NCBI GenBank assembly: GCA_043767805.1
Contig: JAYUGC010000113.1
Location: forward strand, 1-61,972
DNA from: Pseudomonadota bacterium
GTDB taxonomy: Bacteria; Bdellovibrionota; FAC87; UBA2466
Length of the DNA stretch: 61,972 nt
Direction of reading: 5' to 3'
How positions within the stretch are numbered: the stretch's first letter is position 1; every line of letters begins with the position of its first letter. Shown here piece by piece: positions 2,431 through 25,389 of this stretch. A model generated the notes under the pieces. It ran no database searches, was not told where the DNA came from, and saw only the letters and a program-made list of their open reading frames with translations. Both the position numbers and the translations under genes were made by a program.

Positions 2431-2718
2431 ATGTTGAAACTTTCCCTCGCGAGCTTAATGTTCTTTGGATTCAACCTTTTGGCGAATGAGCCGACGACCG
2501 CTCCCGCGGCCGCCACTGCCGCCACGGCGACCGCCCCGGCCAACGCCGCGGTCCCGGCCGTGCACACGGTCCACGAAGGTCACACCCACAAGCACGGCAA
2601 AAAATGCGGCCACAAAGCCGAAAAGCACGCCGATCACACGGACTATGAGCACGATGGTCACCACCACCACGCTCACGAAACCCACGTAGACGACTGCGTA
2701 GGCCCGGCCCACTCGTAA
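2431..2718 (+). CDS. Small secreted His-rich putative metal-binding protein
   Basis: AGGAG RBS; signal peptide, Ala/Thr linker, then HTHKHGKKCGH...HADHTDYEHDGHHHHAH. Confidence 0.75.
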   Translation: MLKLSLASLMFFGFNLLANEPTTAPAAATAATATAPANAAVPAVHTVHEGHTHKHGKKCGHKAEKHADHTDYEHDGHHHHAHETHVDDCVGPAHS

Positions 2719-2734
2719 TTCGTTTCAAAAGCTT

Positions 2735-2756
2735 CCCCGGCCCGCGAGGGCCGGGG
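2735..2756 (+). terminator. GC-rich hairpin, probable terminator or stabilising stem
   Basis: CCCCGGCCC-GCGA-GGGCCGGGG just after the stop; weak U-tract. Confidence 0.5.
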
Positions 2757-2771
2757 TAGGCTTCGTTTCGC

Positions 2772-6532: not shown

Positions 6533-6575
6533 CCAATATCGAGTTTTGAGGCTAGCGAGTCGGGGTTTTTACAGA

Positions 6576-6591
6576 TGGCACCTTGGTTGCA
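6576..6591 (+). promoter_or_regulatory. sigma54 -24/-12 promoter of the giant gene
   Basis: TGGCACCTTGGTTGCA, near-consensus. Confidence 0.75.
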
Positions 6592-6736
6592 CAAGTTAGA
6601 AAACGACTTCCCATCCACCGCCGAGCGTTCGCTGGCCCGGTCCTTCGGAGTTTTTTTGAAACGTACACACGCCAAATTCGTTACGTTCCTGTTCCCTGCC
6701 TTTGCGCGCAGAGTGAAGGCATCGGGGGATTATTCC

Positions 6737-7582
6737 ATGACACGTGTTTTGTGCGCGGTAGCGCTCGCGTTCTGTTTTACGGCGCTGAGCTATGCCGCGG
6801 ACCCGCCCGCGGCTGACGAGAAACACGATCAGGACGGCCGGGCCACTAATGAATTAAAAAAATCCATCGAGACGCGCGCGGCTTATCTCCGTGAAGCGCT
6901 AAACAGCGCGGACAGTAAAATTCGTCTCGCCGCGTTCGCCGAAATCCGTGGCTACATCGCTTCCGATTCCAGAGAGAAATTCTCGACGATAGAGGCCAAC
7001 AAGAAGTTGGTGGACCTTTATCTCGGCGCGGAACATTTTGAGTCTCACGGCACTTGGTACGCGGACGCTAAAGCGGACAAGAAAGATATCGAAGCGAAGT
7101 CGGCCGCTTTCTTAAAGGTCGTCAGCGACCATTTCGCCGCCAAGGAAAAAGCCGAACGCGAAAAGTTGGCTAAGGTCGAAGAGGACAAAGCGCGTAACGA
7201 TCGCGAACTTCCCTGCGGCGAAGCCATTGGCAAGCACCCGGAATTTGCCGCCCTGTTTGGCAGCCAAGGCCGCGACAGAGCTCCCGCTTATGTGGCGGCT
7301 TTGCTGTCGACTCCCGAAGGAGAGCAAAAGTTTTTTAGCGGCTTGAAAACCATGACCGCTGAGACCATGCGTAAGTGTGATCTCCCTGAGATGACCGCGA
7401 GCGCTACGCTCCGGACTCTTTTGAAAGAGCTTCCCAAATTCCTTCCCGCCAATGCTTCCGAAGCCGCGAAAAAAGAAGCCGCGGCGCTGGTAGGGTGGGG
7501 GACGTACGTACTTCCCATCAAGCAGCCCGCTCTTAGAAAAGCGCTAGCCAACCGGCTCGAGCTGATGGCGCGCCTCGTTTGA
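6737..7582 (+). CDS. Signal-peptide-bearing helical protein; probable N-terminal part of the giant gene
   Basis: GGGGGA RBS then ATG at 6737; MTRVLCAVALAFCFTALSYA signal peptide; ends at TGA 7580-7582, in frame with the next ORF. Confidence 0.75.
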   Translation: MTRVLCAVALAFCFTALSYAADPPAADEKHDQDGRATNELKKSIETRAAYLREALNSADSKIRLAAFAEIRGYIASDSREKFSTIEANKKLVDLYLGAEHFESHGTWYADAKADKKDIEAKSAAFLKVVSDHFAAKEKAEREKLAKVEEDKARNDRELPCGEAIGKHPEFAALFGSQGRDRAPAYVAALLSTPEGEQKFFSGLKTMTAETMRKCDLPEMTASATLRTLLKELPKFLPANASEAAKKEAAALVGWGTYVLPIKQPALRKALANRLELMARLV

Positions 7583-7606
7583 GCGACGGCGAGCCAAGGC
7601 GCGGTC

Positions 7607-10600
7607 TTGTCCGACGAGTTCAAAAAAGCGATGACCGATCTCCGAGACAGTCCAACCCGCGGCGCGGACCTGGACGGCCATCTCTTTCTTCAGCTTCTGC
7701 AAACGCCTGATTCCACCACCAATACCGGCCATTCGTTGTTGGGCCTGGAAGGGTTGGAAGATTCCGCAAAGCAAGACTTCTATACGGTCGTCGGAGCCAT
7801 CCGCGCCCAGGATCCTTTCGCGGGCGCTCTCGTCGAGCCCGGAGGCAAGACTCTGTCGTCGCCTGAAGAGCTATTTGCGAGAATGGCTTATAGGGAAGAC
7901 CCGGCGGTCCTTAAAACGCTCGAGTTCAAGGGTGGGCCGGGCTACGCTGACTCTCCCGAGTACCTGCGGGAGACCCTGAGCCGCGCGTTTGCGGACTTGG
8001 AAAAACCCGAGACGCACCATCTCGGGCTCGATCGAAGCCGAGCACTGCCGTCTCAGATGGGACTGCTCTCCGAAGAAGAGCGAAAAGTTCAGCGAGAAAT
8101 TTTATCCGCGGCCCAGCTGGCCGTCGAACGCATGGACGGACATCAGCTCTCCGCGGACGATGCCGTGCTGCTAGAGGAAGAGCGCGCTCTCAAATCAAAA
8201 CTTTCCAAGAACTGTCCTTCCAACGCGGACTACGAGCTGAAGCGTTTGATCGAGATAGCGAAAGCCAAAGACAAAAAATCCATACCCATCCGGACTCGCC
8301 TGGCGCTTCTAAAGCTACCCGCGGGCCACATGGAAATACTTCGCTTCCTGATTGATAAAGCCGCTACCCCGGCTGAAAAGGACCGCCTTTCCGCTTTGAT
8401 TTATGCTCCGTCGGCGAACGCGATTCGGACAGAGCTCGGCAAGTTACCTTCCGAGCTCTTGGTCCTGGATTACAATCAGCCGCGCTTTAAAAGGGAATAC
8501 GATCAGAGAAACGGCGTCTCGTCGGTTCCGCTACCCTCTATCTTTGGAAAAAAGAACGAAGCGGGGGCCGCCAATCCCAACTTCCGTCCGGAAGCTGCTC
8601 GCTACTACGCGCTCAACGCTTTTAAATATGAAGCGCACGGTTCCCCCGAGGGAAGTAGTGACCCGCAGGCGTTTTTCAGCTGCTTTAAGCCGCCCTACGT
8701 CGATGCTTTGGCGATTTACGTCGGAGACATCGATGGCTGGGGACTTACCACTCCGCAAATTCTGGCGGAAATGGAGAAGGTCCGCTCGGGTAAGCTTGCC
8801 GAAGCCAATCCGAAGGTACAGGGTTTCTTGCAGGAGCTTTACGCGAATCGCGGAGCGAATCGCCTCGACTCGGACATCATTCGCCTGGGCCAGTGGCGCC
8901 GGGCCAAAGATCACCGCGCGCCGACCTCCGAAGAGCGAATGGCGTTTCTCGGAGATACCTTGCTCCCGGCAAGTCACGAGCAGGCCCCAAGCTTGAGATC
9001 GGAACGCGAAGGCGTAGTTAAGTTCGTTGCCACTCCCACGACTCAAACTCCCTCGGCGCTTCGTTGCGAGGATGAGGACCAGGCTTTGAAGAGTGTGCTC
9101 GCCGAGCAGTTCCCCGCGGTTGCCGAGGCGTTGGTGAGCTCCGATCCGGCGAAACTCGTTCACGCTTGGATCGCCGTCAATCGCGGCAATCTGAGCTTCG
9201 ACCCGGCCAAGATCCCGCTACCGGAGAAAACCGATCCGCGGTGGAAAAAACTTTCCGAAACCGTGGTGCCGTCCAAAGACAAAGCCGCTTTCTGGGATCG
9301 CATCAAGCAGGATCCCATTGCGGGTCTGGGAAAAGAGGCCGCGCCGGCGATACGCCGACAGATTCTCAGCCGTCTGATGCCCCAGCTCGTCTTGAGTGCG
9401 CCGAAAGCCGCGGAAAATCCGCTTCCCGGCCTGACCCCCGAGACCAAGGCCGCCAGAGAGCAGGCCGTTTCTCGCCGCATCGAGGACATCCAGAATTTGG
9501 TGAACTACGCCCAGCGAAATCTCGTCGGTATCGATGCCTTGTTCGCGCTCCAAAGCGCGAGCCCCGAAACCGGAGCGGACGCGCCCGAAGAGTTCCGCAA
9601 GGGCTTCTTGGCCTTTAACCGAGCCATGGAGAGTAATATCAGAGCGGTCCCCGGTCAGTTCGTCGACGGAATCTCGGGAGAGCTCGACCGGCTATTGAGC
9701 GGGCTTATGGAGGAAGAGCGCCTCAAGGTGCCCATGGACGCCTTTCTCCTCCACGACCGGATTTCTCTCAGAGAATATCACCGAGTGGGAGCCGAGAAGG
9801 ATGGCACGCGGCAGCCCGTCACGCCAGACGGTTCCCCTGATCTCTCCAACTTGGCAAAGGAAGAAGCTTTTCTGAAAGGCGTTCAAGCGCGCCATCAGTA
9901 CTTCGCCCAGCAAGGCTTGAAGCAAAAGCGCTTGGAGGCGCTCGGCTCGCAAAACGAATTTCTGACTCAGTTTTCCCGGCACCTCGGGCGGCTGGGTCCC
10001 GAGGTTCTTCCCGCCGCTCAGCTCAAGGCGGTTCTCGACCAGCTAGGAAGAATAAACGCCGCACTTACCGTCGGTCAGAAGGCCGCCCTTCTCCAAACGC
10101 TTGGCAATTTCGCTCTGTATTGCCAGAGCAAGCCCGACAATTGCAGTCTGCCGCTCCGCGAATCCGTGGGGCTCATGAACGCCATGTCTTTGAGGGATTT
10201 CGAAACGCTCAATCCCCTGGTGTATCAGCAGCACCTCAAGACTCCGAACGAAAGCAAAGACCCGTTTCTCGGCGACAACCGCCGTTTGTTTTCCAAGTGC
10301 TTGTTGAGGGACGAGCCGCCTCGCGAGGTGGCGAAGACTGAGGAGCCGAAGCCGGAAGTGGCGCCCCTCGTTCCTTTCAAGTTAGATAACTCCCGGCCGG
10401 ATGGCCCGAGTGCGCAGGGCCCCACGGCGGCGAACAAAGATCCCATCTGGGGACTACCCGAAACGTTTATTACCGAGGACGGAAAGCCCAAGTCCGCGGA
10501 AATGCGGGACGGGAGTAGCCCGTTCTTCGCGGAAAAAGCCGAGATGACGGCCGAAGCGCGTCAGAAGGTTTGGCTAAAAAACGAAGCGCGCGTGGCGGAA

Positions 10601-13600
10601 GCTCTCGATGATCTGGCAAATCCTGCCCTGACGGCTGAGGATCTGCAAAAACGTTTTGGGGCTTATTATCAGTCTAGGTTTGGGCAGCCTATGCCCACCG
10701 GTCCCTTAAGCCCGGTCACGGCGCAGAAGCTACGTTTTGCTTTGGTCAGCGATCTGTTCGAGCAGGCGGCCGCGGCCTCGGGAACCGCGCAGCGTAGCCG
10801 GCTACTCGCGGCGTTGAGCTCCTTGCCTGGTTCCGACGGAACCGTGGGAGGCTTGCGAAAGGCCTTGGACGGACTCTTCGACACCTCCACAAAAAATGAG
10901 TTTCAGCTCGCCGCTAAATTCCAGGCGGTTAACGACTGGTTGATCCAAGAAGCGAGTCACGGCGTCGGCAATAGCGACTCGAGAATGAGCCGCCTGCTTG
11001 GTTTGGTCTCGAGCACGCTCGACGATTACTGGGATCCAACGCAGAACAAGGCGCATGCGGACTCGGCGAGCACCCTTCGGATGGAGGGAGAGTACGAGCG
11101 GCATTATCCCGAGCTGGCCGAGCTGAGAACGCGGCTCCAGACCGCCGCCGTCAACGAAGGCAAATTCCTCTACGGTTCCGCCCGGCACTGGGCTTATTCG
11201 TCCCCTGAAACGATCCAGGCGGTGAGCGATCTCGGCAACACTTTATTGAGATACGAGCCGAAGGCGCTCGTCTCCGCGTTAACTGACGCCGGCGGCGATG
11301 CGAAACGCGCCAGCAAAGTGGACGAGCTCCATAAGCTCTGGGGGCGTTTCGCCCTGGAGCCCAACGCGGATCCCATGGCCGCGGATTTCAAGCCGGGCAA
11401 TCTGAACACGAATCGCGTTCGCGCGCTGGCGATGGAAACGCTTCTGCGTAAGTACAAGTTCAACGTGGGCGAGCTCGAGCAGATGCTAGGCACCTACTTA
11501 AAGGGAGCCCGGCTCGTTTCTCCCTACGAAATGGCTTTGGGCCTCGATCCGAACCTCGGCATCTACAATACCAAGAGTCACGCGGACGTTTTGAAACAGC
11601 CCGTGAAGGATGAAGATAAGGAAGGCATGATCGCCGAGCTTCTCATGGACGCTCGTGGCATCGGCGCCTACTTGCGCCGGAACAATCCAGTTCCCATGCC
11701 CGGACAAACTCCCAATCCCAAGCGGGACGAGCTGACTAAGAAATTTGCCGAAAGCTGGCCTACCACCGCGGAAATGAAAGCCACCATCGGGAGCCTGAAG
11801 TATTGGGCGGGTCCCGAGCAGGGCGGAGAGCGCACGCGCCAAGAGATTCAAGCCAAGTTTGGTTTCCTCACCGACCATCAGTCCGATCAGTTGAACCGCG
11901 CCTTGTCCGTATTGAGAAAGCTGCCCAAGCGCGATCTCCCCAGTGACGCGGAGATCATGCGAGTTATCGCCACGGAAGTGTTTCGGACCTATTCCAACGG
12001 CGAAGTGGGCGCGGAAAAGACGATTCCCGCGGTACTGAAACCGGACGCGGACGCGCTTCTGGAGACCGTGCGGAGCCTACACGAGTTGGTTAAATCGGAT
12101 CGCCCCGTCTTGGAAGCCGACTTGGCTGGCGCGACTAAGGGTCTTAAAGAATTGCTCGGCCAGGCCTCACTCGTCCAAGATCCCGAGAGTGGCCTGAAGA
12201 ACTGGATTTTAGGCAGCATGAACCGGAACATGGGCATCTCCGGACTGCTCACCGACCTCTTCGAGTACCGGCACCCCTGGGTGAAGCTCGATTCCATCGA
12301 GAACGTTTTGACGACCTTGGATCCGCGGCTCCGCGATACCGATCCCTTGGTTCGGGAACAGCTGAGAAATTTAGCGCGTATCTTGAAGGCGTCGCGCTGG
12401 CTCGAGGACAAGGAAAATCCGACCGATGCCGAGATTGAAAAAGCGGTTAGTGAAGCTTCCTTCGGCGTGACGCCGGATCAGAAGACTCCCGAGGAAATGG
12501 CAGCCGAAATCAAGCGTCTCTCTAGCTGGGTCAAGCTCTCGCTCCATATCGCGAAAAAAGCGCCTACCGATCGAAAATTAGATCAGGACCTCGCTTCCTT
12601 CATTCCCGCCGAGAGAACTCCGGAAGCGATCCGCTCCGACGCGCATCTCATCAGCGAATTTTTCAAAATCTCCCGCACTTTCTCGCCCAGAGACTCTGAC
12701 CGCGCCCAGCTCGCGAAGCTGCGGGATCAGGGACTCGATCACCATCTCATCGATACCTGGGTCAAAGCGTTGCAAGTCGACATGGATCATCTCGCCGGAG
12801 TGGCGCCGCACAAGGCGCTGGATGCGATTCGTTCGTCGAGTGCCGCGCGGGACGAAATTCTCGGGGCTATTTCCCTCATCACCCGTCATCTCAAAGACGA
12901 TCCGGTTCCCTTCAGCATGACGCCAAAGAAGGACGCGCCCTTTTCCATTCTCGCGGACCGCTTCGGTAGAACTCACAGAATCGAAGGGCTCTATCCGTGG
13001 ATCAAAGATCAGCTCAATGAGACGGACGAAGGAAAGTACACCGCGGCTCTCATGGGCGTTCTTCCCATCGGAGTCAAAGACGTAACCGACGACGCGCCGG
13101 AAAAAGCGCCTCTAGTGGGCGATAAGAACGAGCTTTTCGCCCAGGCTCTGTCGGTTCTGCGCTGCCGTTTACTGGAAGAGGTCCTTCGTCTTCAGTACGG
13201 TTATTCCGCGCGCGGCGGTAGCAGCCAATCTGCGCTCCTTCATTTCGATAACGACGTCCGCAAAAACGATCAAAAGCTCGGCGTGCTTTACGCAAAGGTC
13301 ATCCGGGACGTCGAAGTAAAGCTCCTGGAGCAATATTCGGACGCGGAAGTCGACATGAAGGCATTCCGCGACAAGTTGAAGAGCACCGATCCGGTCGCCT
13401 ATCTGAACACTTTGCGGGAACGCACTTTGCCCAGCGAAGCCGAAATGCGCGACGGCCGCGTGGTCGCGGTGCCCGGATGTGTGTATCAAGACACGTATCG
13501 CTCTACCGCGTCGGGTGGCCCGGATAAAAAAGGGCCCGGCTGGATCTTGGCGGGTCCGAACCGTGCGTTCTCAGAGTGGGCTCGCGAAGAGTTGCGGCGA

Positions 13601-16600
13601 GGCGGGCGCGACGGTGTCTCCGAGATTTTGCGCGACGACAATCGCTTCCTCTCGGCGTTATCCGGCGAGCTCTCACAGAGCTTTGGCCCGTACGCGGGCT
13701 TTTATCGCCCTCAAAATACCTGGACGGCCGAAAAGACTTATCCCGCCTTGCATGAGTGGGGATACTCGGTGGCTTTACAGCGCGGCAAATACCCGACCGA
13801 CGGGTTCGCACCCCGGGATCCTCCACCCGCCGTGCTGGCCGCCTTGGCCGAGCTTCCGAAGGAAAAGAAAGAAGCTCTCACTAGCCAATTGGAAGCCGCG
13901 AAGAAGGAAGCCCTCCGTAAGGATAAGGCCGCGGAGAATCTAGTCGGCACAGGGCCGACGTTCGGCGTGCGGACGGTCCATCCGGATCACGACGTCGAAG
14001 AAGCGGGGAAAGCCCTGCGCGCGGCGCACGAGACCCGCAAGGCTATTTACGACTCGATTTTGGAAACGCATGCGCAATCTTTCCGCACGCCCGCTTCACC
14101 CATTCCCGCCGGGGCGGAAGCTCAGTTGATGAAGCTTTCGCTTCCCATGCGAGAGTTGCTCTCCGTCGTTCTTTTCCATGAGCGCGATCGCGCGGCCGTT
14201 ATCGAAGCTAAGCTTCGCGAGCTGGATCGCGACCCGAAAGCCAACGAAAAAGAGATCACCAAGCTTCGCTCCGAAGTGAAAGCCATTCATCTTTTGGCCA
14301 ACCGGCTCATTCTGGTCCCCGACGTCTCCACCTTAGCGAGCGTCGCCTGGAAGGACCCCAAGCTCAGAATGTGGTTACTCGACAAGGCCACGCCGCGACT
14401 CAGTCCGCCCGAAGAAGGAAAGGCGTTCACCGATCTGACGGACAAGCTCCGGCGCTGGGACAAGTTGCTTCTGAAGCCGGGTGAAGAGGCATTGAGTCTT
14501 GAGGAACGCGAAGCTGTACGAGACCAGTTTGAAAGGGTCTTGCATTTCGCCGCGGCTCCGTCGAGTGGTCCTTTCGAGGAGACTCGTGGCTCGAACGACC
14601 GCGGCAAGAAAGCCGCTTCCCATTTCGTTTCCTTACTCCTGCGCATGACCGAAGAGGCCGGGAGTCTCGAGTTTGCTCGCAAAAACTCCGGCTTCGCCAA
14701 AGATTACGAAGCTGTCATGGGCGGAGACGCGCGCTTTACCCCGCAGGCTACCTTAGGCGAGCTGCAGTCCGAGCGGCGCTTGGCTCACGACGGTTGCGCG
14801 GGAGACAAGGCAACCTCACTGACTTGCGTGAAACTGAACGAGCGCCTCAAAAAAATGGATGGTCTGGGACGTGGATTGTCTACCCAGGCCCGCCTGAGGT
14901 ATTTGACCCCTGGCGAAGATCAGCTCCAAGAGGGCGACTTCCATGCGTTAGAGCGGCTCGAAAACGATTTGCTGCCTCAGACGCATACGCAAAACGATAA
15001 AGCGGAGGGAATCCGGCTCACCCAGGAAAACCTGATGGCGTTCCCGAGTAAAGGCGTCATCGATCAGGCGTCGCGCAACTACGACTTGGGACGTTTCCTC
15101 TATCGCACTCAGAATGAGTCCGTGCCTCGCGTTTCGGAAGAAGTCATCGAGCGCTTGGTGAAAGTGGCGCAAAACGGCAAGGCACAAGTTTTCGGATGGA
15201 AGATCACCGACAAGGGTCCGACTCTCGTGGTGGAAGAGAAAGCTTGCGAGACGATTAAGCCGCTCCCCGAGAACCCCGGCGAAGTCGATACCGAAGTCAT
15301 CGCAGACGTCGTCATGTCCAAGGAAGACAGCGAAGTCATTCTCGGAGGAGCCACGAGGCTCGCGAACTACCAGGCGTTCCAGACGGCTTACGAGGGCCTG
15401 AAGCTATCTTCGCCGACCGGGCAGGAGCCCGATTACGCCGAGGTGATGGAAAAAGCCAAGCCCATCTTCGACGAGAAGCGCGACAAGCTCTTGACTGATC
15501 TGGTCACCATGGCGGCGCGCCGGTATTTGCAGATAGCGATCCGAGAAGCCGGCAATCCGGCCGACTTGCGTCTCTCCGCGCCCAACTCGAAAGCAGGTTG
15601 CGCCCTGCGCGCGTTGCTCGGTAAAGCGCACATCTACGACATTCAGAAAGTGCAACAAGACGTCTTCCGCTCGGAGAAGATTGCGGAAACTCGCGCAGCC
15701 GGGAAGGGCGACGGGACGGTTTCGCCGAAGGAAATGGGAGAAAAGCTCGAGAGGTTCATGAGCTCACCTGAGTTTCTCGTCGAGATCGAGCGCAAGTTCG
15801 AACATGAGGTGGCTTTCCACGACGGTACCCAGGAACAGACGCGGCCGGTGTTCAACGCAGCCGTGACCGAGACGACTCTCAAGGACGGTCTGGGCGCTTG
15901 TTACGACAGCTGGAAAAAAGGCGGCAAGACGGTTCCGGCAATTACCCGGCAAGACGATCCTCGCGTGCTCAAGCTAGCCACCGCCATCGAGGCGGAAACT
16001 CTAGCCATTCGTTCGCTGCACCAGATGAATCAGGTGGAGGCCGATTTGCGCGCCCGCGCGGCGGAGACCACCATCAGCGACACCGCGGCGGACCTCTCTT
16101 TCTTTTCCGACCCCAAAACGGGTTTGGTGACGTCGATTGAGAAACAGCTGGCCAGGTTTAAGAACCCGAAGCTCAATCCGGAGCTCAATACCCACGAGAT
16201 GAAAAAGACCGTGGAGCGGCTGGAAGAGCAGCTCGCGTCGCACAAATCAAATGCATCAAGACTGACGTTTGACCTCTACCGGAACCGTTTGCGGGTGGAA
16301 GCGGCGCTGAACGCTCCTTTGGACGGACCCAAGACCCAAGAAGAGATTCTCTCGGATATCGATTCCATCTCTCGCATCAAGAGCCTTTACGAAGAGGAAA
16401 GCAATCGGCTTCATCTGGCGCTTCCCGAAGACCGGCGTCCTCCGTTCGCGGCTTTTCCGCCGAATGATTTCTTCGGCAATGTCTATGACGACCCCCAATT
16501 GCGCGGCTACGTCGAGCGCTTCGTCCGCGCCAAGCTCGCGGCGGTAGCGGAGAAGCGCAAGCTGCACCAAGTTCCCGAAGGGTACGATCCCCGCCTCGAC

Positions 16601-19600
16601 GAAGCGGCTTTGATCGACATCAAGCTCCAGTCCCTCATCCGCAAAGCCGGCGCGCTCAAGCGCTCCGAGCGGATGCAGAAGATGGAAGAAGAGCTCGGTA
16701 AAATGGCGACCGCTCAAGACCAGAGCGTCATCTTGAAAGTTCAGGATGATTTCGACCAGATGGCCGTGCACTGCATGGAGCTGCTCGCGGACAAGGGCCG
16801 CTGGCCGGTCTTCACCGATGACGACGGCAAACATTTCGACTTGGCGGATATCGCCGCCGTCCGCAACCACATCATGGCCTTCGAGGCGCAACGGGCGGGC
16901 TTTAAGGCTCTCGTCAGCTCCCTTTTGCCGCCTCCCGGAGTCAAGCTGGCTAAAGACATGGACGGGACCCGGGCTTTCGAGCACTTCGTGGCTAGCCACC
17001 CGACGTATAAGGAAGCTTTAATAGCCATGCAGGGCAACGACTCGCTTTTCCCGCTGAACGAGGCGGCTTTGCACTCCTTGGAGAAAGACACCTTCCAAAG
17101 AGCGTTCGACGAGCGCAATCAGGAAGAGATCAAATTGAAGGAAAGCCTCGAGGGTCTAGCCGAGCTCGGGTTTCAGTGGAACGGCACCAGCCTCCAGTGG
17201 GGCCAGGGCAAGGACGGTCTCAAGCTTCATCTCATCGGGCCCAAAGGCAAGATCAAGAGCCTCGCCGAATTGAAGGCGCGTCTCGAGGGTTTGCGCGCCC
17301 ATGGCGCTTACAAGCTCAATGGAAATAATCCCTGGTCGCTTCTGATGGAAGACATCTGGCTGAAATACTCGAACACTGGCTTCAAGCCGCTTATCGAGTT
17401 CGGTAACTCCGCCATTTGCATGATGAGCTTCTTGCACGAGACCGACGAAGCCCGAGCGGATGGGATTTACTCTCAGAGCACCGGTAGGGAGCAAAATCTA
17501 CCCGATCACGAGCTTTGCTTCGATCCGACACTGACGAAAGTTTCCGACAAGCATCGTGTCAAATCGGCGCGTCTCGGCGGTGGCATCGAAGACCAAAAAG
17601 GAATCTCGTCGACCTTCCTGAGCGACATGGGTCACGCGGAGAAGTACCTTGCTTTCATGAGCCTCGAAGATGCCCGCGCTAGAGCCACCAAGATTGCGGC
17701 GGAAGTGAAAGCCGGCATGAGCGGCGAGGCCAACAAGTACGATCTTCTGCGCAAAGAGCTCATGGGGCAGTCCAGCAACATGTTCGCGGCCTTTCAGGAT
17801 CTCGATCAGATTTCTTGGGAGCGCAACCCTCAGGGCAATATCTGGATGCGAAACCTGGGCTGGACCAGCGTAAAAGGCGCGGCCAATGCCTTGGATAAAT
17901 CGTGGGGCGCACTCGGAAAGCTCAGAGACACGCTGGCGAGCGACATCTCTCGCTTGGAAGCCCTCGGCGGCATCACCATCGACTGGCAGGCGAGCGATCA
18001 CACCGTTCAGCAGCCCGCCTCCAGCATCGCCCAGATGTTGCGGCAGCAGCAAAAATACGTCACTGACCCGGATTTCTTCAAGAACGTGCCTCGCGAGGTC
18101 ATGGAAAACATCGACGCTCTCCAGGAGTTCTATACCGAGATGCTCATCACCGAAATCGCCACCGCGGGTCTCGGTGGCGTGTTCCAGGCGGCCAGATTCG
18201 GCCTTAGGGGCGCGATGGTCGCCGATGCGGCGAAGTATGCGGTGCTGGCGGAGCGTCTGGAAAAAGGAATGGCGCTCACCGAGCACGTCGTGAAAGGCGT
18301 GCGCAGCGCTTACCGTTTCGGAATAGGCGGTAAGGTCGTCGGCGATTTGATTTCCAAATTGAACGAAAAAGAGCGCGGCTACATGATGACTCAGTCGGGC
18401 GTGCAACTGCGCGACGGCGCGAGAAAGAGCCGCTGGGTTTTCGGTCTGCTTCCGCTGACTGGGCCCGTGGTGCAGTCGATGGCGCAGTTGAGCGGCGTTC
18501 CGGCGCACTTGATTCCCTGGGTGGCGGGCCCGCTCTCCATGGGCGGAACGCACTACGGTGTCGAAATCGCCAACGGCCACGATCCCCTGCATTCTTTGAT
18601 TGGTACCGTGCCGATGGCGATGTTCGGCCTTCCGGTATCGCGGCTGGCCGGGGGTCTCTACGCCAACGGCATGAAGCAGCCCATTTTGGGATCGGTGCTT
18701 AGGCCCACCTGGGTGCAGAAGCCGCTCATGGGAATCGCCAGTTACGGTTACTTCGCCAGTGTTACCGCGACCGGCGGTGCGCTTAGCCATTACCTCTCTC
18801 CGGGGATCAACCGGGATGAGGAGACAGGTGAGCTCGTCTACACGAGTCCTTTCACGGGCAAAGAAGTGAAGGACGCGACGATCTTAAAAATCATGGGCGA
18901 CGCGGTTTTCGGCAATATCGGCATGGATATGTTCTTCGCTCGCAATCACATCGCGGAAGTCCAGTCGAACGCGGCGGCAAGTCTCTTCCGCTCCGGCACG
19001 TCTTATCGCCAAGTGATCGATACCTTTAGCGGAGGCAAGCCCCAAAAGGCGCAGCAAGCCCATCAGATGCTGATTCAGGGGCTTGCGCACACCTCCGTCT
19101 CCGAGATCCGCAATATGCGCCAGAAAGCCATCGAGCGGCGCCGTGAGGTCGAAAAGAATCCGCTCAACGTAGAGGCGGCGCGGGAACTGGAGGGTCTGGA
19201 ACAGTCCCTTTCGCTTTTTGCAAAGACCGCGGGCCACGGCGAGAAGGAATTTGGCACCGTGGATGAAGCGGCGATTAACTCGTTCATGACTTCTCTCGAG
19301 GCTCACACTAAGGGCGGCCTGGGCAACCGGCCGCTCATGGAAGTCGTCGATAAAATGTCTTTCGAATTGGCGGTGGCCAAAGTTTCCGATCTGAAAAAGA
19401 AAGACGCCAGCTTGGATGAATGGCTCGCGCTGGTCAAAGATCCCATTTATCAAGGATCGGGCGCCTCCAGCATGGCGCGGATCATGATCTTGCCTCCCGA
19501 AATCATCCAGAAAGCGCTGGCCTCTCCCAAGCACAAGGAAGCTTTCTTCCCGGTACTCGAGCAGCTCGCGGGCATCGTCTCCATTCGGCCGGACAGAATG

Positions 19601-21979
19601 GGCTCCTTCGGCGAATTCATGACTCACTACCGGCCTAAGGGGAAAGAGACGCTTCTCGGGATTGCCCAAAAATTCAACCGCGCGAAGCCGGGGCAGTATC
19701 GCAAGTTTCTCGCCGACGGCAGCATGACCTATCTTGATTTGATCGAAGGCTTCGAAAACGAGAGAACGGCTATTCTGGACGGTTTCACGGTCGATGACGT
19801 GCGGGTGATCGTCGCGCAGGCCAATGAAACTTCTCAAACGGGACGCGCTAAAGCCGCCAAGGTGATGCTCGAGCTTCTGGCGAGTCGCCATCAGATCGAC
19901 GTTCCGCTCTTCGTTCAGGCGATAGCGGGCGCGGCGAAAGATCGCCCCGCGGTCTCCGCGGACGCTAAAGTGGGCACCGACAAGGGATGGTTGAAGGACA
20001 CTAAGCTCATTAATCTGGCGGGCGAAATGTTACCGCGTGCGGCGCGCGCTCTGCGCGATCAGGTGAAAGCGGATCCGTCGAAAATCGACCAAATGATGGG
20101 TTACGCCTACTTCCAGGTCCCGCAGGGTTTCGTGCACGTGCCGCTTAGCGCGCTCAGAGTCGGAAGTGGCAGCGGCCCGGACGCGAAGCCAGCCGACCCG
20201 AAACATTTGCAGTTTCTCGATCTCGTTTCCGCTCACCATGCGAAAATCGATTCGACTTTCTCGAACGCTTTGTACGAGCGAGGCGTTTCGGTCGGCGAGT
20301 TTCAGCTCTATTTCCGTGAGTTCGTTCGCAACAAGGCAGGCCTGTTCAGCAATCCGCCGGACGCGGCCCGCCAAGCGAAGCTCGACTTCATGGCGGCGAT
20401 CCGCAGCCGACCCAAGCCGGGTGAGACGAAAATGGACGGCTTGCAGGCTTTGACGAAGGAGTGGAACGAGGTCGAAGCGCTCATCACGGCGGATCCCAAA
20501 GATCCGGCCGCCGTGGCGAGGCTTGCGAAGATTGAGCCGACGATCCTCGCCCTGGCCGAGCGCTCTGGTTTCGTCGATGGCCAGGGGGGCGCGAACCCGG
20601 TGGGCCTGTTCCATTTCCTCGAGCAAGCCCGCGCCGAGAAGGCGCCCAAAGAAGGACCGGACAGCCGTACGGTGGCTCAGCTCATGCCGGAGGCGCAGCG
20701 TTTGGCCCGCCTGGACATGGTCGCCAAAGCCAGAGACGGCTCGCTCAGCGTCGAGGCTTTGCTGACTCACGACCTGTTCTTGGATCCGCGCTATCAATTC
20801 CGCACGACGGGAAAACTCCATTTCCGCCCCGAGGCCCTGGCCATGATTCCTCAAGACGTCGTGTTGCGCGCGTACCAAAAAGCGGTGAACCCGGAACAGA
20901 AGCGGGCTTACGCCGAGGCCATCGTGCGCATAGCGCAGGAGTCCGGCTATGTTCCAAGGCACCTCGAGGAAGGGTTCCTAAATTTCCTCGTCGGATACCG
21001 GGGCAGCCGCGGCGCGACCGTCGTGGACCTCGCCCAGCTCTATCAGAGTGGCCACGTGAGTGAGCTCGGGCACATGCTGGCGTCGGGAGCGCTGGATCTA
21101 GGCGGCCTCGAAGGCCTGCCGGATTCGACGGCAAATAAGGTTCAAAACACCGTTCGCGCGTTGGTGAGAGTGGAGCTGAAGCCTTCCCGGGCCGAAGAAG
21201 TCTTGGACTCGCTGACCGTGGAGTCCGTCGGGAAGCTCGTGGATCAGGCCAAGAACCCGAATCATCCGAACTCGGTCAACGCGAGAAACATCGTTCGGAC
21301 CATCTCCCATCGCATGGGAACGGAGCCCGAATATTTCGAGACTTTCTTTGCGGACTATCGGAAAGGAAAAGAGAGTAGCGCCATCTACGATGCGTTGGGA
21401 CAGTTCATGGGGATCAAGCTCGATCCTCGTCAGCTCCGGACGATGAAAGACGTGGCGCCTTATTTCTGGAAGGCGAGTAACGAGGCCGTCCGCAACACTC
21501 TGGAAGCGCGGCCGGAAGTGCTCGAGAAGCTAGCGACCACGAGCTTCTTCGCTCAAGAGAACCCCTTCCGCTTCCTGCCCACTTCGGCGCTTCGTCTGAC
21601 GGAAACCAAGCGGATGGAGCGCTCTCCGAACAGCGCCGAAGTGACGGAAGTCACCGTGCCCTCAAATGCGATTCACCACTTACTCATAGATAAGGCGGGC
21701 AGCGACGCGGTTCGAAACGACGCCGTTTTCCTCAAGGCCTTGCAAACCCGCCAGGTCGAAGGAGTGAACGAGTCGGACGCGTTCGTGGCTCATCTGAAGC
21801 AAGTCTTGATCGGGGAGCCGGGCAAGTACAGGAACGTCAGTGACGCCGTGGAAGCGGCGAAGAAGAGTTACTTGCTGACGCCGCGGTCGGTGCCGGTGCC
21901 AAAGACCAGCAGCCTACTTCGAAGCGGTCTCAATATTGTTGAGCGCCGCTTTGCGCACGGACTCATGGTAGCCGTCTAA
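7607..21979 (+). CDS. Giant (4790 aa) alpha-helical hypothetical protein
   Basis: 14.4-kb uninterrupted ORF. The TTG start lacks an RBS and the product has no signal peptide. Gly/Ala-rich hydrophobic block at about 18140-18940; duplicated C-terminal module. Confidence 0.9.
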   Translation: MSDEFKKAMTDLRDSPTRGADLDGHLFLQLLQTPDSTTNTGHSLLGLEGLEDSAKQDFYTVVGAIRAQDPFAGALVEPGGKTLSSPEELFARMAYREDPAVLKTLEFKGGPGYADSPEYLRETLSRAFADLEKPETHHLGLDRSRALPSQMGLLSEEERKVQREILSAAQLAVERMDGHQLSADDAVLLEEERALKSKLSKNCPSNADYELKRLIEIAKAKDKKSIPIRTRLALLKLPAGHMEILRFLIDKAATPAEKDRLSALIYAPSANAIRTELGKLPSELLVLDYNQPRFKREYDQRNGVSSVPLPSIFGKKNEAGAANPNFRPEAARYYALNAFKYEAHGSPEGSSDPQAFFSCFKPPYVDALAIYVGDIDGWGLTTPQILAEMEKVRSGKLAEANPKVQGFLQELYANRGANRLDSDIIRLGQWRRAKDHRAPTSEERMAFLGDTLLPASHEQAPSLRSEREGVVKFVATPTTQTPSALRCEDEDQALKSVLAEQFPAVAEALVSSDPAKLVHAWIAVNRGNLSFDPAKIPLPEKTDPRWKKLSETVVPSKDKAAFWDRIKQDPIAGLGKEAAPAIRRQILSRLMPQLVLSAPKAAENPLPGLTPETKAAREQAVSRRIEDIQNLVNYAQRNLVGIDALFALQSASPETGADAPEEFRKGFLAFNRAMESNIRAVPGQFVDGISGELDRLLSGLMEEERLKVPMDAFLLHDRISLREYHRVGAEKDGTRQPVTPDGSPDLSNLAKEEAFLKGVQARHQYFAQQGLKQKRLEALGSQNEFLTQFSRHLGRLGPEVLPAAQLKAVLDQLGRINAALTVGQKAALLQTLGNFALYCQSKPDNCSLPLRESVGLMNAMSLRDFETLNPLVYQQHLKTPNESKDPFLGDNRRLFSKCLLRDEPPREVAKTEEPKPEVAPLVPFKLDNSRPDGPSAQGPTAANKDPIWGLPETFITEDGKPKSAEMRDGSSPFFAEKAEMTAEARQKVWLKNEARVAEALDDLANPALTAEDLQKRFGAYYQSRFGQPMPTGPLSPVTAQKLRFALVSDLFEQAAAASGTAQRSRLLAALSSLPGSDGTVGGLRKALDGLFDTSTKNEFQLAAKFQAVNDWLIQEASHGVGNSDSRMSRLLGLVSSTLDDYWDPTQNKAHADSASTLRMEGEYERHYPELAELRTRLQTAAVNEGKFLYGSARHWAYSSPETIQAVSDLGNTLLRYEPKALVSALTDAGGDAKRASKVDELHKLWGRFALEPNADPMAADFKPGNLNTNRVRALAMETLLRKYKFNVGELEQMLGTYLKGARLVSPYEMALGLDPNLGIYNTKSHADVLKQPVKDEDKEGMIAELLMDARGIGAYLRRNNPVPMPGQTPNPKRDELTKKFAESWPTTAEMKATIGSLKYWAGPEQGGERTRQEIQAKFGFLTDHQSDQLNRALSVLRKLPKRDLPSDAEIMRVIATEVFRTYSNGEVGAEKTIPAVLKPDADALLETVRSLHELVKSDRPVLEADLAGATKGLKELLGQASLVQDPESGLKNWILGSMNRNMGISGLLTDLFEYRHPWVKLDSIENVLTTLDPRLRDTDPLVREQLRNLARILKASRWLEDKENPTDAEIEKAVSEASFGVTPDQKTPEEMAAEIKRLSSWVKLSLHIAKKAPTDRKLDQDLASFIPAERTPEAIRSDAHLISEFFKISRTFSPRDSDRAQLAKLRDQGLDHHLIDTWVKALQVDMDHLAGVAPHKALDAIRSSSAARDEILGAISLITRHLKDDPVPFSMTPKKDAPFSILADRFGRTHRIEGLYPWIKDQLNETDEGKYTAALMGVLPIGVKDVTDDAPEKAPLVGDKNELFAQALSVLRCRLLEEVLRLQYGYSARGGSSQSALLHFDNDVRKNDQKLGVLYAKVIRDVEVKLLEQYSDAEVDMKAFRDKLKSTDPVAYLNTLRERTLPSEAEMRDGRVVAVPGCVYQDTYRSTASGGPDKKGPGWILAGPNRAFSEWAREELRRGGRDGVSEILRDDNRFLSALSGELSQSFGPYAGFYRPQNTWTAEKTYPALHEWGYSVALQRGKYPTDGFAPRDPPPAVLAALAELPKEKKEALTSQLEAAKKEALRKDKAAENLVGTGPTFGVRTVHPDHDVEEAGKALRAAHETRKAIYDSILETHAQSFRTPASPIPAGAEAQLMKLSLPMRELLSVVLFHERDRAAVIEAKLRELDRDPKANEKEITKLRSEVKAIHLLANRLILVPDVSTLASVAWKDPKLRMWLLDKATPRLSPPEEGKAFTDLTDKLRRWDKLLLKPGEEALSLEEREAVRDQFERVLHFAAAPSSGPFEETRGSNDRGKKAASHFVSLLLRMTEEAGSLEFARKNSGFAKDYEAVMGGDARFTPQATLGELQSERRLAHDGCAGDKATSLTCVKLNERLKKMDGLGRGLSTQARLRYLTPGEDQLQEGDFHALERLENDLLPQTHTQNDKAEGIRLTQENLMAFPSKGVIDQASRNYDLGRFLYRTQNESVPRVSEEVIERLVKVAQNGKAQVFGWKITDKGPTLVVEEKACETIKPLPENPGEVDTEVIADVVMSKEDSEVILGGATRLANYQAFQTAYEGLKLSSPTGQEPDYAEVMEKAKPIFDEKRDKLLTDLVTMAARRYLQIAIREAGNPADLRLSAPNSKAGCALRALLGKAHIYDIQKVQQDVFRSEKIAETRAAGKGDGTVSPKEMGEKLERFMSSPEFLVEIERKFEHEVAFHDGTQEQTRPVFNAAVTETTLKDGLGACYDSWKKGGKTVPAITRQDDPRVLKLATAIEAETLAIRSLHQMNQVEADLRARAAETTISDTAADLSFFSDPKTGLVTSIEKQLARFKNPKLNPELNTHEMKKTVERLEEQLASHKSNASRLTFDLYRNRLRVEAALNAPLDGPKTQEEILSDIDSISRIKSLYEEESNRLHLALPEDRRPPFAAFPPNDFFGNVYDDPQLRGYVERFVRAKLAAVAEKRKLHQVPEGYDPRLDEAALIDIKLQSLIRKAGALKRSERMQKMEEELGKMATAQDQSVILKVQDDFDQMAVHCMELLADKGRWPVFTDDDGKHFDLADIAAVRNHIMAFEAQRAGFKALVSSLLPPPGVKLAKDMDGTRAFEHFVASHPTYKEALIAMQGNDSLFPLNEAALHSLEKDTFQRAFDERNQEEIKLKESLEGLAELGFQWNGTSLQWGQGKDGLKLHLIGPKGKIKSLAELKARLEGLRAHGAYKLNGNNPWSLLMEDIWLKYSNTGFKPLIEFGNSAICMMSFLHETDEARADGIYSQSTGREQNLPDHELCFDPTLTKVSDKHRVKSARLGGGIEDQKGISSTFLSDMGHAEKYLAFMSLEDARARATKIAAEVKAGMSGEANKYDLLRKELMGQSSNMFAAFQDLDQISWERNPQGNIWMRNLGWTSVKGAANALDKSWGALGKLRDTLASDISRLEALGGITIDWQASDHTVQQPASSIAQMLRQQQKYVTDPDFFKNVPREVMENIDALQEFYTEMLITEIATAGLGGVFQAARFGLRGAMVADAAKYAVLAERLEKGMALTEHVVKGVRSAYRFGIGGKVVGDLISKLNEKERGYMMTQSGVQLRDGARKSRWVFGLLPLTGPVVQSMAQLSGVPAHLIPWVAGPLSMGGTHYGVEIANGHDPLHSLIGTVPMAMFGLPVSRLAGGLYANGMKQPILGSVLRPTWVQKPLMGIASYGYFASVTATGGALSHYLSPGINRDEETGELVYTSPFTGKEVKDATILKIMGDAVFGNIGMDMFFARNHIAEVQSNAAASLFRSGTSYRQVIDTFSGGKPQKAQQAHQMLIQGLAHTSVSEIRNMRQKAIERRREVEKNPLNVEAARELEGLEQSLSLFAKTAGHGEKEFGTVDEAAINSFMTSLEAHTKGGLGNRPLMEVVDKMSFELAVAKVSDLKKKDASLDEWLALVKDPIYQGSGASSMARIMILPPEIIQKALASPKHKEAFFPVLEQLAGIVSIRPDRMGSFGEFMTHYRPKGKETLLGIAQKFNRAKPGQYRKFLADGSMTYLDLIEGFENERTAILDGFTVDDVRVIVAQANETSQTGRAKAAKVMLELLASRHQIDVPLFVQAIAGAAKDRPAVSADAKVGTDKGWLKDTKLINLAGEMLPRAARALRDQVKADPSKIDQMMGYAYFQVPQGFVHVPLSALRVGSGSGPDAKPADPKHLQFLDLVSAHHAKIDSTFSNALYERGVSVGEFQLYFREFVRNKAGLFSNPPDAARQAKLDFMAAIRSRPKPGETKMDGLQALTKEWNEVEALITADPKDPAAVARLAKIEPTILALAERSGFVDGQGGANPVGLFHFLEQARAEKAPKEGPDSRTVAQLMPEAQRLARLDMVAKARDGSLSVEALLTHDLFLDPRYQFRTTGKLHFRPEALAMIPQDVVLRAYQKAVNPEQKRAYAEAIVRIAQESGYVPRHLEEGFLNFLVGYRGSRGATVVDLAQLYQSGHVSELGHMLASGALDLGGLEGLPDSTANKVQNTVRALVRVELKPSRAEEVLDSLTVESVGKLVDQAKNPNHPNSVNARNIVRTISHRMGTEPEYFETFFADYRKGKESSAIYDALGQFMGIKLDPRQLRTMKDVAPYFWKASNEAVRNTLEARPEVLEKLATTSFFAQENPFRFLPTSALRLTETKRMERSPNSAEVTEVTVPSNAIHHLLIDKAGSDAVRNDAVFLKALQTRQVEGVNESDAFVAHLKQVLIGEPGKYRNVSDAVEAAKKSYLLTPRSVPVPKTSSLLRSGLNIVERRFAHGLMVAV

Positions 21980-23113: not shown

Positions 23114-23400
23114 GGGTGACCTCGAAAAGCGATTACTCAAAGTGTACTACGGGTTTCTGGAACTGCATCGTGCGATGGTTCAGCTTGGGCCATTTGAATC
23201 TCGGGGCGTTTTGCATGATAATAACAAAAGGAATACGGTTACCTAATGGTCGACGATGCGGAATTTGGCCGAGAAAAGTCACCGGCAGGCAAAACGGTAT
23301 TCTCGTCAGCGGTTAGCCGCTCTGTCCTAAGTAATTAGAATCATTAATTTTTAATATTTGTTTGGTTGGGCGTATTCGTACACAAAAAGGGTACGCAGCT

Positions 23401-23416: not shown

Positions 23417-23493
23417 GAATCCCACTGCAGGGATTTCGTCTACGACGAGCGTCCTGTGGAAATAGGCTTTAGGGGTCATTCGGAGGAATGGTA

Positions 23494-24846
23494 ATGAGAC
23501 TCTCAGATAAGTTGATTCGTTTCGGAGTTGGGTTGTCGCTGATCAGCGGGATTTTTGCCGTGGCTCCTGCGATGGCAGCTGGTCCTTTGATGTACGCGAG
23601 ACCTCCGATGGCTCGTGGCAAGGTCTTGGAGATGCCTAACCACATCGCCAACGCCGGCGATACCGCGAAACGGCTCGAAGCCATGCGGGCTAAGATCGAG
23701 CTCTTCTCGGTGCAGGATCGGACGATGGCGGACACTTTCGTCAGCCGCTCGGCCGAGCTCAAAATCGAGAAGGCGGAAGCTGAAAAGTTCGCCGGTGAGT
23801 TTAAGAAACTCACGGACGATCTCACCAATATCATGGGCGACAAGACCCGCTCCGTGGAAGCGGTTTATGCCGATGCGGTCGCGAAATTGCGCGAACGTGA
23901 ATCGCTTTATGACTCTTTCTTGAGTGAAAAAGTGAAGATCGATTTCGATATCACCCGGTCCAATCGTCCGGGCGGTAAAGAAGGCGTAAGCGACTGGGGT
24001 GGCTCGGTTGCTTTCGGCAAGAAGCCGACCGCCGGCACTGCTTCCCGCAGTGAAGTGGTAGCCAACGGCGAAGGAACTCCAGCTCATGACGGTCCCGAGG
24101 CTCCGGCGAACTCTCGCGTCGCCACGGCGGGCGCGGCGGCCACCAAGGCTCGCGGCGTAGCCGAGTTCTGGGGAAAGTTTAGCCCTGAGAAGGGTTGCTC
24201 GAGTGGTTTCTGTATGACCCTCGTCACCGCTCTCGGTGGTGCCGGCCCGGGTAACCAGGTCGCTGGCAAAGTCGATTCCTTCGTGAAGATGTTGTCCAAC
24301 GCCGGCAATCACGAGGCGGCGGAAAATTTCGTGAATCGCCTCAAATCGGTGGTCGATTTCGTCAACAAGACGCAAGATCCCGCCCAGAAGCGTGAGCTCA
24401 CGGCGATTCTCGGGCAGATGCTCAGCTCGCGCGGTATTACCGCCGAGAGCTTCGACGAGATGGAAGGTTTCGCCAAGGGCGGCGACGTCGCGGCGATTCA
24501 GGGCATGCACCGCATGGCGACGGTCTTGAAGAACCTTCGCGAGCACTTCGAGAAGAATATCGAAAAGGCTCCTAAAGAAGGCACGCCTGAGCACGAAGCT
24601 TGGCTCGCTCGCCGTGATAAGTGGGCTGGCGACAAGTTGCGTGACTGGGTCGATTACGGCGAAGAGTTCCGTACGTCGGTCGCCAAGGGTTCCGAAATCG
24701 GCAAGGCCGAATGGGCGAAGTGGATGGAAGGTAAGACCGACCACGACAAATTGGCCGACAACGATCCTAACAAGCGTCCGGATAAAGATCTCGGCAAGAG
24801 CCTCGGCGCTTGCGGCGGTTGGATGCGTAAGTCTCCGACCACCTAA
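23494..24846 (+). CDS. Secreted coiled-coil hypothetical protein
   Basis: GGAGGA at 23482-23487 then ATG at 23494; signal peptide ending PAMAA; heptad-rich N-terminal half. Confidence 0.8.
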   Translation: MRLSDKLIRFGVGLSLISGIFAVAPAMAAGPLMYARPPMARGKVLEMPNHIANAGDTAKRLEAMRAKIELFSVQDRTMADTFVSRSAELKIEKAEAEKFAGEFKKLTDDLTNIMGDKTRSVEAVYADAVAKLRERESLYDSFLSEKVKIDFDITRSNRPGGKEGVSDWGGSVAFGKKPTAGTASRSEVVANGEGTPAHDGPEAPANSRVATAGAAATKARGVAEFWGKFSPEKGCSSGFCMTLVTALGGAGPGNQVAGKVDSFVKMLSNAGNHEAAENFVNRLKSVVDFVNKTQDPAQKRELTAILGQMLSSRGITAESFDEMEGFAKGGDVAAIQGMHRMATVLKNLREHFEKNIEKAPKEGTPEHEAWLARRDKWAGDKLRDWVDYGEEFRTSVAKGSEIGKAEWAKWMEGKTDHDKLADNDPNKRPDKDLGKSLGACGGWMRKSPTT

Positions 24847-25108: not shown

Positions 25109-25389
25109 GAGAATCTCCCTTTTTGGCGTGAAGTAGTCTTATTCTATCCGTTCCGACCACGAGCCGTCCAATTCCTATACAGCGGCAGAAGCCCCATGAT
25201 TGCGAGCCCCTAGGCCGAGGGGTCCGGACCTCGTCTGAAATTGATCCCCCCGTCAGTCCACCGACAGTCGTCAGGTCTATCCCCATCAATGATTAACCAT
25301 TAACAATAAATACTTAACTTACCTTAGGGGGGCGCGAGATCGCGAGCGGATTGGCCGACGATATGCACCTTAAGGTCCCGGGGGGGTTC

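Follow-up and report, generated by a model that had tools for sequence, protein, structure and literature searches.

The giant gene and its features

Contig JAYUGC010000113.1 of the assembly GCA_043767805.1, from a bacterium of the Bdellovibrionota, was analysed over its positions 1 to 61,972 (the window, 61,972 nucleotides, of 58% G+C), and within it a giant open reading frame (ORF) runs uninterrupted from 7607 to 21979 on the forward strand. The ORF list and its translation give 4,790 amino acids (aa) when it is started at TTG 7607, and the entry in the public protein collection is 4,782 aa, matching a start at ATG 7631. The product is best explained as a lineage-restricted, almost entirely alpha-helical and largely non-repetitive protein, and the intact gene probably begins further upstream with a signal peptide. 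The original prediction, made from the letters alone, had placed a helical orphan with a toxin-like layout at 7607..21979; as an ORF this stands, but the 5' part at 6575-7582 with the signal peptide was missed. The four peptides that it quoted are all present in the translation. The features of the gene are given below with residues numbered on the 4,790-aa ORF, G000 being the source genome, G001 a sister genome of the same genus and P0007 a distant relative.

6575..7582, + strand: upstream ORF P0003 of 335 codons, in frame with the giant ORF with one TGA between them
6737..6796, + strand: predicted Sec-type signal peptide MTRVLCAVALAFCFTALSYA, then ADPP (n-, h- and c-regions judged by inspection)
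7580..7582, + strand: in-frame TGA, its first base polymorphic T/C (public contigs over 7300-7900)
7607..21979, + strand: giant ORF (G001 homologue with 40.6% identity over aa 1211-4782 and 36% over the first 1,230 aa)
15767..19720, + strand: conserved core, aa 2721-4038, common to P0007 (BLASTP E 4e-50, 23% identity, 1,349 columns)
17114..17416, + strand: small alpha/beta domain, aa ~3170-3270, with GF-x-WNG and NPW (invariant in 3 sequences)
18119..18976, + strand: hydrophobic Gly/Pro-rich block, aa 3505-3790, ~290 aa (grand average of hydropathy, GRAVY, and conservation)
18419..18796, + strand: core of the block, aa 3605-3730 (GRAVY)
19430..20464, + strand: helical module copy 1, aa ~3942-4286 (BLASTP self-match, hhalign, AlphaFold)
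20774..21952, + strand: helical module copy 2, aa ~4390-4782 (BLASTP self-match, hhalign, AlphaFold)

The giant ORF is a real gene, as an open frame of such length in DNA of 58% G+C, which is also conserved in G001, is not a product of chance. It is the largest open frame of the assembly (4.52 Mb, 204 contigs), with 4,798 codons open from 7583 and the runner-up having 2,882, and no paralogue of it was found within G000. The further frames that exceed 2,000 codons here (contigs C23, C110, C197, C194, C120 and C71) are mostly rich in Thr, Ser, Asn and Gly and bear signal peptides; these look like adhesins, with the helical giant the exception among them.

An upstream signal-peptide domain and a polymorphic stop codon

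P0003 ends 24 bases 5' of the giant ORF and the open frame of the giant starts at 7583, right after the TGA. The likely start of P0003 is ATG 6737 (M55), which has GGGGGA just 5' of it, and the N-terminus that follows consists by inspection of an n-region (MTR), an h-region (VLCAVALAFCFTAL) and a cleavage site (SYA-A). Read in the same way, the G001 homologue has a K-K n-region followed by GLAAFALTFAFSLLA, and P0007 an R-rich n-region followed by AAFALAALAYLVVF, for which the free energy (dG) of aa 16-34 is 2.5 on the Hessa scale (approximate values). Hydrophobic signal sequences are found in all three homologues with a known N-terminus (G000, G001 and P0007), and by inspection they agree with what is looked for in Sec export, which is a positively charged n-region, an h-region of 10-15 residues and a small-x-small cleavage site. 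As this signal peptide lies upstream in frame, the likely location of the protein changes.

It is probable from the comparison with G001 that P0003 is the true N-terminal portion of the giant protein. In that genome its homologue is fused in frame to the giant (N-domain 28% identity, E 1e-22), where contig C99 has an open frame that begins upstream of a matching signal-like segment and is still open when the contig stops. The end of C99 matches the start of contig C80 over 80 bases, at 95% identity, and with this overlap the contig coordinates give G001 a single gene of ~5,226 codons (from GTG 12872). The G001 assembly breaks within its giant gene at this very overlap, which suggests strain heterogeneity inside the giant gene in the G001 sample as well.

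The stop codon itself is not constant between public contigs. Position 7580 is C, making the codon CGA for Arg, in contigs of the runs X2 (depth 7.4), X3 (6.9) and X4 (2.6), the position being only 5 bases from the contig end in X4, and it is T in run X1, one contig of which terminates at exactly 7579. The simplest reading is that 7580 is a T/C strain polymorphism, of which the assembled allele would be a nonsense variant. Since 7580 reads C in three of the four runs and the homologue from the same genus is fused, one precursor is probable, and the intact allele would probably give a single exported precursor of ~5,080 aa from ATG 6737. Insertion of selenocysteine at the TGA was considered and rejected, as ARAGORN found no tRNA-Sec among 41 tRNAs and G001 has neither Cys nor Sec there.

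Two other readings of the stop codon have to be weighed. The first is that the two-gene state is functional, with a secreted 281-aa protein and a cytoplasmic 4,782-aa scaffold, or with read-through of the TGA or reinitiation behind it. The assembly does have TGA and run X1 does have T, both TTG 7607 and ATG 7631 lie 3' of the stop and the 4,790 downstream codons remain open. However, the proposed restart region has its homologue inside the fused G001 protein, the C allele is seen in three of the four runs, no tRNA-Sec was found among the 41 tRNAs of the assembly, and P0007 has its signal sequence on one chain, so that this arrangement is highly improbable. The second is that the allele of the assembled strain, and not the family, is a fresh pseudogene in which a nonsense mutation has hit a very large target. 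One nonsense single-nucleotide polymorphism is indeed enough to remove the export signal, and accessory giant genes are easily lost, this one being found in one genus of those searched; yet there is no second lesion in 14.4 kb and an intact allele coexists in the samples of the same study, which leaves a slim chance for a pseudogene. Whichever applies to the assembled strain, a strain variant of a single base is enough to mask the export signal when such a giant gene is annotated from a metagenome assembly, and the annotation goes astray.

A tiny orphan family

The giant matches next to nothing in collections of known families. Pfam returned a single row, DUF6038, whose 10.1 bits (E 0.34) fall short of the cut-off of 25, NCBIfam, PHROGs and PADLOC gave nothing above threshold, and a profile search of PDB sequences with the family alignment A2 gave 0 matches at E <=1. 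When Pfam was run on P0007, on a further relative P0009 and on both parts of the G001 homologue, none of the four had a match over the cut-off. The orphan status that was first claimed is borne out, with no housekeeping or adhesin family matched by Pfam, NCBIfam or the PDB profile search, and the same is true of the claimed lack of RHS, RTX and cadherin-type repeats, of which Pfam and NCBIfam gave none and for which no tandem repeats were detected in the DNA of the giant gene.

Searches of genomes and protein clusters found few relatives. The last 1,390 aa as query gave matches in 2 of 61 related genomes, which are G000 itself and G001, and aa 2721-3860 gave matches at E <=0.01 in 3 of 401 genomes of the phylum, two of them clear; the third genome (G360) was treated as chance, its match having an E of 0.0085 and 14 bits over 93 residues. 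Query A1 against the contigs of GTDB genomes recovered G001 alone. An exhaustive phmmer search of 1.84 billion cluster representatives, with aa 3450-4649 as query, gave three proteins, the giant itself, P0006, which is a 587-aa fragment with 41% identity, and the distant relative P0007, which has 2,565 aa (phmmer E 1.5e-4). The cluster of P0006 also contains P0009, which comes from a third organism and is a fragment of 1,455 aa taking in the block and the C-terminus.

A word-indexed search with the whole protein over 5.8 billion clusters (proteins of 2,634-8,383 aa) recovered the giant alone among 1,334 scored candidates, and with aa 1-1700 and 1700-3450 against shorter proteins it recovered none; this type of search is insensitive here, because the 1700-3450 query also failed to recover P0007. 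No match was found in JGI metagenome contigs with the queries A1 and P0009, nor in viral contigs with A2, and the literature, searched by topic and not by sequence or accession, gave no description of the family.

Judged by these searches the giant is part of a tiny four-member orphan family, made up of one genus of the Pseudobdellovibrionaceae, one metagenome fragment and one distant relative of 2,565 aa. Its 41% identity to G001 compares with 40-79% for 11 neighbouring genes, and it is an accessory, fast-evolving gene. It is thus a clean case of protein dark matter, with ~5,000 residues and a handful of relatives among billions of sequences.

Helical build of the protein

Two AlphaFold models that jointly span aa 3170-4790 consist almost wholly of helices. 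For the first 3,170 aa the composition points the same way, with ~52% of windows helix-favouring and ~16% strand-favouring (Chou-Fasman with approximate values, a measure of composition only). Of the original description as helical and coiled-coil, the word helical is supported, by AlphaFold for aa 3170-4790 and by composition before that, and the word coiled-coil is not, a crude heptad score finding just 3 segments that total 119 aa. Proline makes up 5.5% of the residues of the giant, stretches of at least 28 aa free of Pro and Gly number only 13 and total 441 of 4,790 aa, and the GRAVY of the whole protein is -0.42.

Comparison of all 240-aa windows with each other by hhalign, using the G000/G001 alignment, left the first ~3,900 aa without a convincing internal repeat, the lone weak signal there being between ~1424-1496 and ~1584-1650 (hhalign probability 54%). 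The small alpha/beta domain at aa ~3170-3270 is the most confident part of the first model, where the predicted local distance difference test (pLDDT) in blocks of 10 residues is 56-86 and mostly 70-86. For the 1,682 modelled residues no fold match was found.

The conserved hydrophobic block

The hydrophobic block that was originally described is real, it has no equal elsewhere in the protein and its sequence is better conserved than that of any other part. It contains 13% Gly and 5% Pro, and the most hydrophobic 126-aa window of the protein starts within it at aa 3610 with a GRAVY of +0.48, the best such window outside the block reaching +0.08. Across four homologues the core of the block has a GRAVY of +0.40, +0.44, +0.35 and +0.36, with charged residues making up 6-14%. 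Identity of the block to G001 is 52-70% as against ~41% for the whole protein; identity common to all three species is 38-51% in the block versus 17-37% downstream, and aa 3601-3700 have the top identity to P0007 of all 100-aa windows (31%). Conserved Pro and Gly are kept within the hydrophobic stretches, together with the invariant polar residues YRF, K, H, GK and NIGxD.

A transmembrane-grade segment, taken as ~19 residues at a Kyte-Doolittle value of at least ~1.6 with a dG near 0, was looked for with 19-mers. There is none in G000, where Kyte-Doolittle values peak at 1.37 in the whole protein and at 1.27 within the block, and where dG does not fall below 5.6 over the scanned last 1,390 aa (Hessa scale, approximate values). 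Where the block begins, the G001 homologue has one segment that is stronger (Kyte-Doolittle 2.17, dG 2.3), so that the result is not uniform among the homologues. On the G000 maximum and minimum the protein does not fit an integral membrane protein or a classical pore-forming hairpin, and a beta-barrel reading of the block was rejected for want of a beta-amphipathic signal.

It could be that the block does not meet a membrane at all, the protein being exported as a purely soluble scaffold, periplasmic or released, in which the block forms the buried core of a globular domain. Such a scaffold agrees with the lack of any transmembrane-grade 19-mer, with the conserved Pro, Gly and invariant polar residues, which fit a folded domain, and with a core GRAVY of +0.35 to +0.44, integral membrane domains usually having higher values. 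In a soluble domain, on the other hand, a charged fraction of 6-14% over 126 aa would be unusual, and this stretch is the sole outlier of the protein, no other window of which exceeds +0.08; nor did AlphaFold give a compact fold for the block, albeit from an alignment of only 3 sequences. A wholly soluble scaffold is on balance unlikely, if still to be reckoned with.

The duplicated C-terminal region

Downstream of the block the protein contains two copies of a helical module, which match each other by BLASTP (E 1.3e-8 to 3e-6) and by hhalign (97.2%, E 3e-11). The model of aa ~3800-4790 consists of arrays of short helices and one beta-hairpin, with a mean pLDDT of 72.4 and a value of at least 70 in 660 of 991 residues; copy 1 is modelled as short helices with a pLDDT mostly of 75-89. 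The best Foldseek matches of the C-terminal region are CRM1, importins, CAND1 and TBC-D (E 3e-4 to 4e-3, template modelling (TM) scores of 0.10-0.14). As the Foldseek matches are only generic helical ones, no enzyme or toxin domain can be recognised in the region. Between G000, G001 and P0009 the C-terminal 990 aa align as homologues at 41-42% identity (three rows, from two other species), and P0007 carries a shorter version of the region.

These results bear on the toxin-like layout of the original prediction, read as that of a protein which translocates or forms pores, with the front as scaffold, the block as pore and the C-terminus as cargo for prey. The order of a long helical front, a hydrophobic domain and a soluble C-terminus is real in outline, and in the translocation domains of toxins it is typical to find marginally hydrophobic, Gly-rich sequence that stays soluble until it inserts. 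Look-alikes of the block found with a language model carry PT-TG, LPD14, LPD22, DUF637 or Ntox50, with scores of 0.78-0.91 that serve as leads only; their recognition values of ~1,860-1,875 fall under the 2,300 reached by 91 of 100 known-family proteins. What speaks against a cargo is that the C-terminus consists of short helices in a duplicated array, in which no enzyme-like fold is seen, and that, because it is homologous in three species, it is not the variable tip of a toxin. In addition the PT-TG and LPD14 hidden Markov models (HMMs) miss the block in this genome and PF18827 has 0 matches, the only PF14449 row in the window being at 9205-9261, far from the block, with E 1.3 and in a 180-aa frame that is apparently another reading frame. 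Gene scans of the window found no immunity, chaperone or secretion-system gene adjacent or linked to the giant, and the neighbour thought to be EarP-like is not conserved. A toxin of this kind is therefore quite unlikely.

Tests for polymorphic toxins of the Rhs, CdiA, PT-TG and LXG kinds came out negative, as the C-terminus is homologous at 41-42% identity, the downstream gene is a convergent UshA-like one, a pre-toxin or trafficking domain is absent by Pfam, and the PF14449 HMM gives no row on the block.

Export and a possible role at the envelope

The reading that is tentatively favoured, with something short of an even chance, is that the giant is an exported, lineage-restricted helical protein of the envelope or the prey interface, whose block associates with a membrane after export. 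The precursor would be threaded wholly through SecYEG, a complete passage through Sec being possible because no segment is hydrophobic enough for a stop-transfer anchor. After export the block may then bind or insert into a membrane, either the outer membrane of the predator or a membrane of the prey, and the helical arrays, of ~4,700 aa, might act as a long scaffold or spacer, placed at the envelope or where predator and prey meet. We infer export from the signal sequences, and the association with a membrane after export and any role in predation are conditional in the same way.

The Pseudobdellovibrionaceae include contact-dependent predators, as is stated in an account of the family (PMC11870529), and a passage in a 2025 review describes the molecules of the predator-prey junction as unknown (PMC12428579). 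Together with the accessory, fast-evolving nature of the gene, these statements lend indirect support to a role in such an interaction. If the favoured reading were true, the giant would be a candidate for a part, structural or membrane-active, of the zone in which a Bdellovibrio-like predator touches its prey, and it would raise the question of how a chain of ~550 kDa with a marginally hydrophobic domain crosses Sec and where it ends up.

A number of points weigh against an exported protein with a membrane-associating block. The gene is split in this assembly and the 4,782-aa product would be without a signal peptide, yet there is no further stop. The signal peptide is a visual reading and the dG values are approximate. 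As for the intact allele, the four runs X1-X4 all come from one study, the X2 and X3 contigs are of equal length and are possibly one data set, and contigs conceal minor alleles at 7580. The AlphaFold model of the block is unreliable, with a pLDDT of 25-45, and a buried globular core is compatible with the data; hydrophobic moments in the core of the block show no amphipathic helices and no beta-barrel strands. No outer-membrane route is linked to the gene, the secretins (5 matches) and one ShlB-like match of this genome being on other contigs. The link to predation comes from taxonomy alone, and no RNA run was listed among the public runs that contain the stretch.

A bolder form of the idea would make the giant a new kind of Sec-exported protein, which crosses as a soluble chain and whose Gly/Pro-rich domain is then driven into a second membrane, building part of the junction or a conduit, with the ~4,700-aa helical array acting as a scaffold that reaches and clamps. 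This is improbable.

Comparison with known systems

Giant proteins have been described from other predatory bacteria. Those of the Omnitrophota ('Archaeovorin', dockerin-type) are, in the part of the account that treats them, larger than 10,000 aa, with many predicted transmembrane regions and mostly SecA-DEAD, peptidase or carbohydrate-binding domains (10.1101/2023.11.21.568195). On the features given there the giant resembles them in being a very large single gene of a predatory lineage, mostly without annotation by HMMs, predicted to be exported or at the surface and proposed to act on prey; unlike them it has no Pfam match and no transmembrane-grade segment and is all-helical. A giant of the Omnitrophota type was rejected on the lack of a Pfam match and of a transmembrane-grade segment. 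In a wider sense the giant would seem to belong with the giant exported proteins of predatory bacteria, and no new mechanism is demonstrated. What is new is the in-frame signal-peptide domain, the polymorphic stop, a family of four members whose conserved centre is the block, and the duplicated helical C-terminus.

With the translocation domains of toxins (the large clostridial, Tc and diphtheria-type T domains) the giant shares a marginally hydrophobic, Gly-rich helical region that lies between a large soluble part and the C-terminus and that could be soluble until it enters a membrane. In contrast to those toxins it is without an enzymatic or receptor-binding domain and has no sequence or fold match to them, it has a predicted Sec signal peptide, and its C-terminus is a conserved helical repeat.

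The modelled C-terminal 990 aa, being short paired helices, recall the HEAT/ARM alpha-solenoids of CRM1, importins, CAND1 and TBC-D, which are cytoplasmic, eukaryotic scaffolds. The TM scores of 0.10-0.14 and a root-mean-square deviation of ~30 A, however, mark this as a generic helical resemblance, and unlike those proteins the giant has no periodicity in its sequence besides the one duplication.

The Lipocone superfamily also contains effectors of predators, with a membrane-dipping four-helix core and conserved polar active-site residues, and includes DUF2279 and DUF4056 according to the section of the preprint that deals with them (10.1101/2025.01.14.632903). No Lipocone family of Pfam was found on the giant at E <=1, and the model of the block is too poor for a comparison of folds. 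Further Pfam names of this superfamily are SAA, Wnt and VanZ.

Two origins from mobile elements were tried and rejected. A large polyvalent protein, such as phages and conjugative elements have, does not fit, since PF18827 is without a match in this genome, PHROGs has none for the giant, viral contigs gave none and the neighbours are chromosomal; for a phage tape-measure protein, PHROGs again gave 0, the best BFVD match has E 1.5e-3 and a TM score of 0.09 and there are no phage genes nearby.

Genomic surroundings

The giant stands alone, with a divergent gene at 4381-5964 on the reverse strand on one side and a convergent gene at 21914-23140, also on the reverse strand, on the other. The wider window contains genes for isoleucyl-tRNA synthetase (IleRS), glycosyltransferases, UDP-galactopyranose mutase, an L,D-transpeptidase and a subtilase, and the setting is chromosomal, not that of a phage or plasmid.

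The divergent gene, which was first thought to be EarP-like and perhaps the cargo partner of the giant, encodes a 527-aa protein with a signal peptide. It has no match in Pfam or NCBIfam and no counterpart on the two G001 contigs that bear the giant homologue, where an M14/AstE-like gene immediately precedes the giant, and it looks like a strain- or species-specific insertion. The convergent gene encodes an UshA-like metallophosphoesterase (NCBIfam 'UshA-like (seleno)protein', E 1e-35, 123 bits against a cut-off of 275) and overlaps the 3' end of the giant by 66 bases. Of the two neighbours whose conservation was to be checked, it is this one that is kept in G001 and the EarP-like gene that is not.

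The downstream order is kept in G001, as compared in only two genomes of one genus, and runs UshA-like gene, P0005, FHA protein, caspase-like protein, epimerase. The second of these is a further orphan of the locus:

23488..24846, + strand: P0005, a 452-aa signal-peptide orphan (syntenic in G001, 40% identity)

No family match was found for P0005, and it occurs in 2 of 61 genomes, only G000 and G001, a distribution equal to that of the giant. This is co-occurrence in close kin and not evidence of a partnership.

Some of the remaining genes may be mentioned in their own right. The small FHA protein at 25351-25971 (+), which is like the cytoplasmic part of YscD, has 43% identity to its G001 counterpart. 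A caspase-family (C14) peptidase lies at 28293-29111 (+) with 71% identity in G001, for which PADLOC gave a weak 'caspase' match (E 1.8e-6). Further along, 47302-50003 (+) encodes an L,D-transpeptidase, in which the domains Scaffold, PG_binding_1 and YkuD are found, and next to it an M15-family peptidase; the two form a peptidoglycan-remodelling pair, perhaps of interest in a predator.

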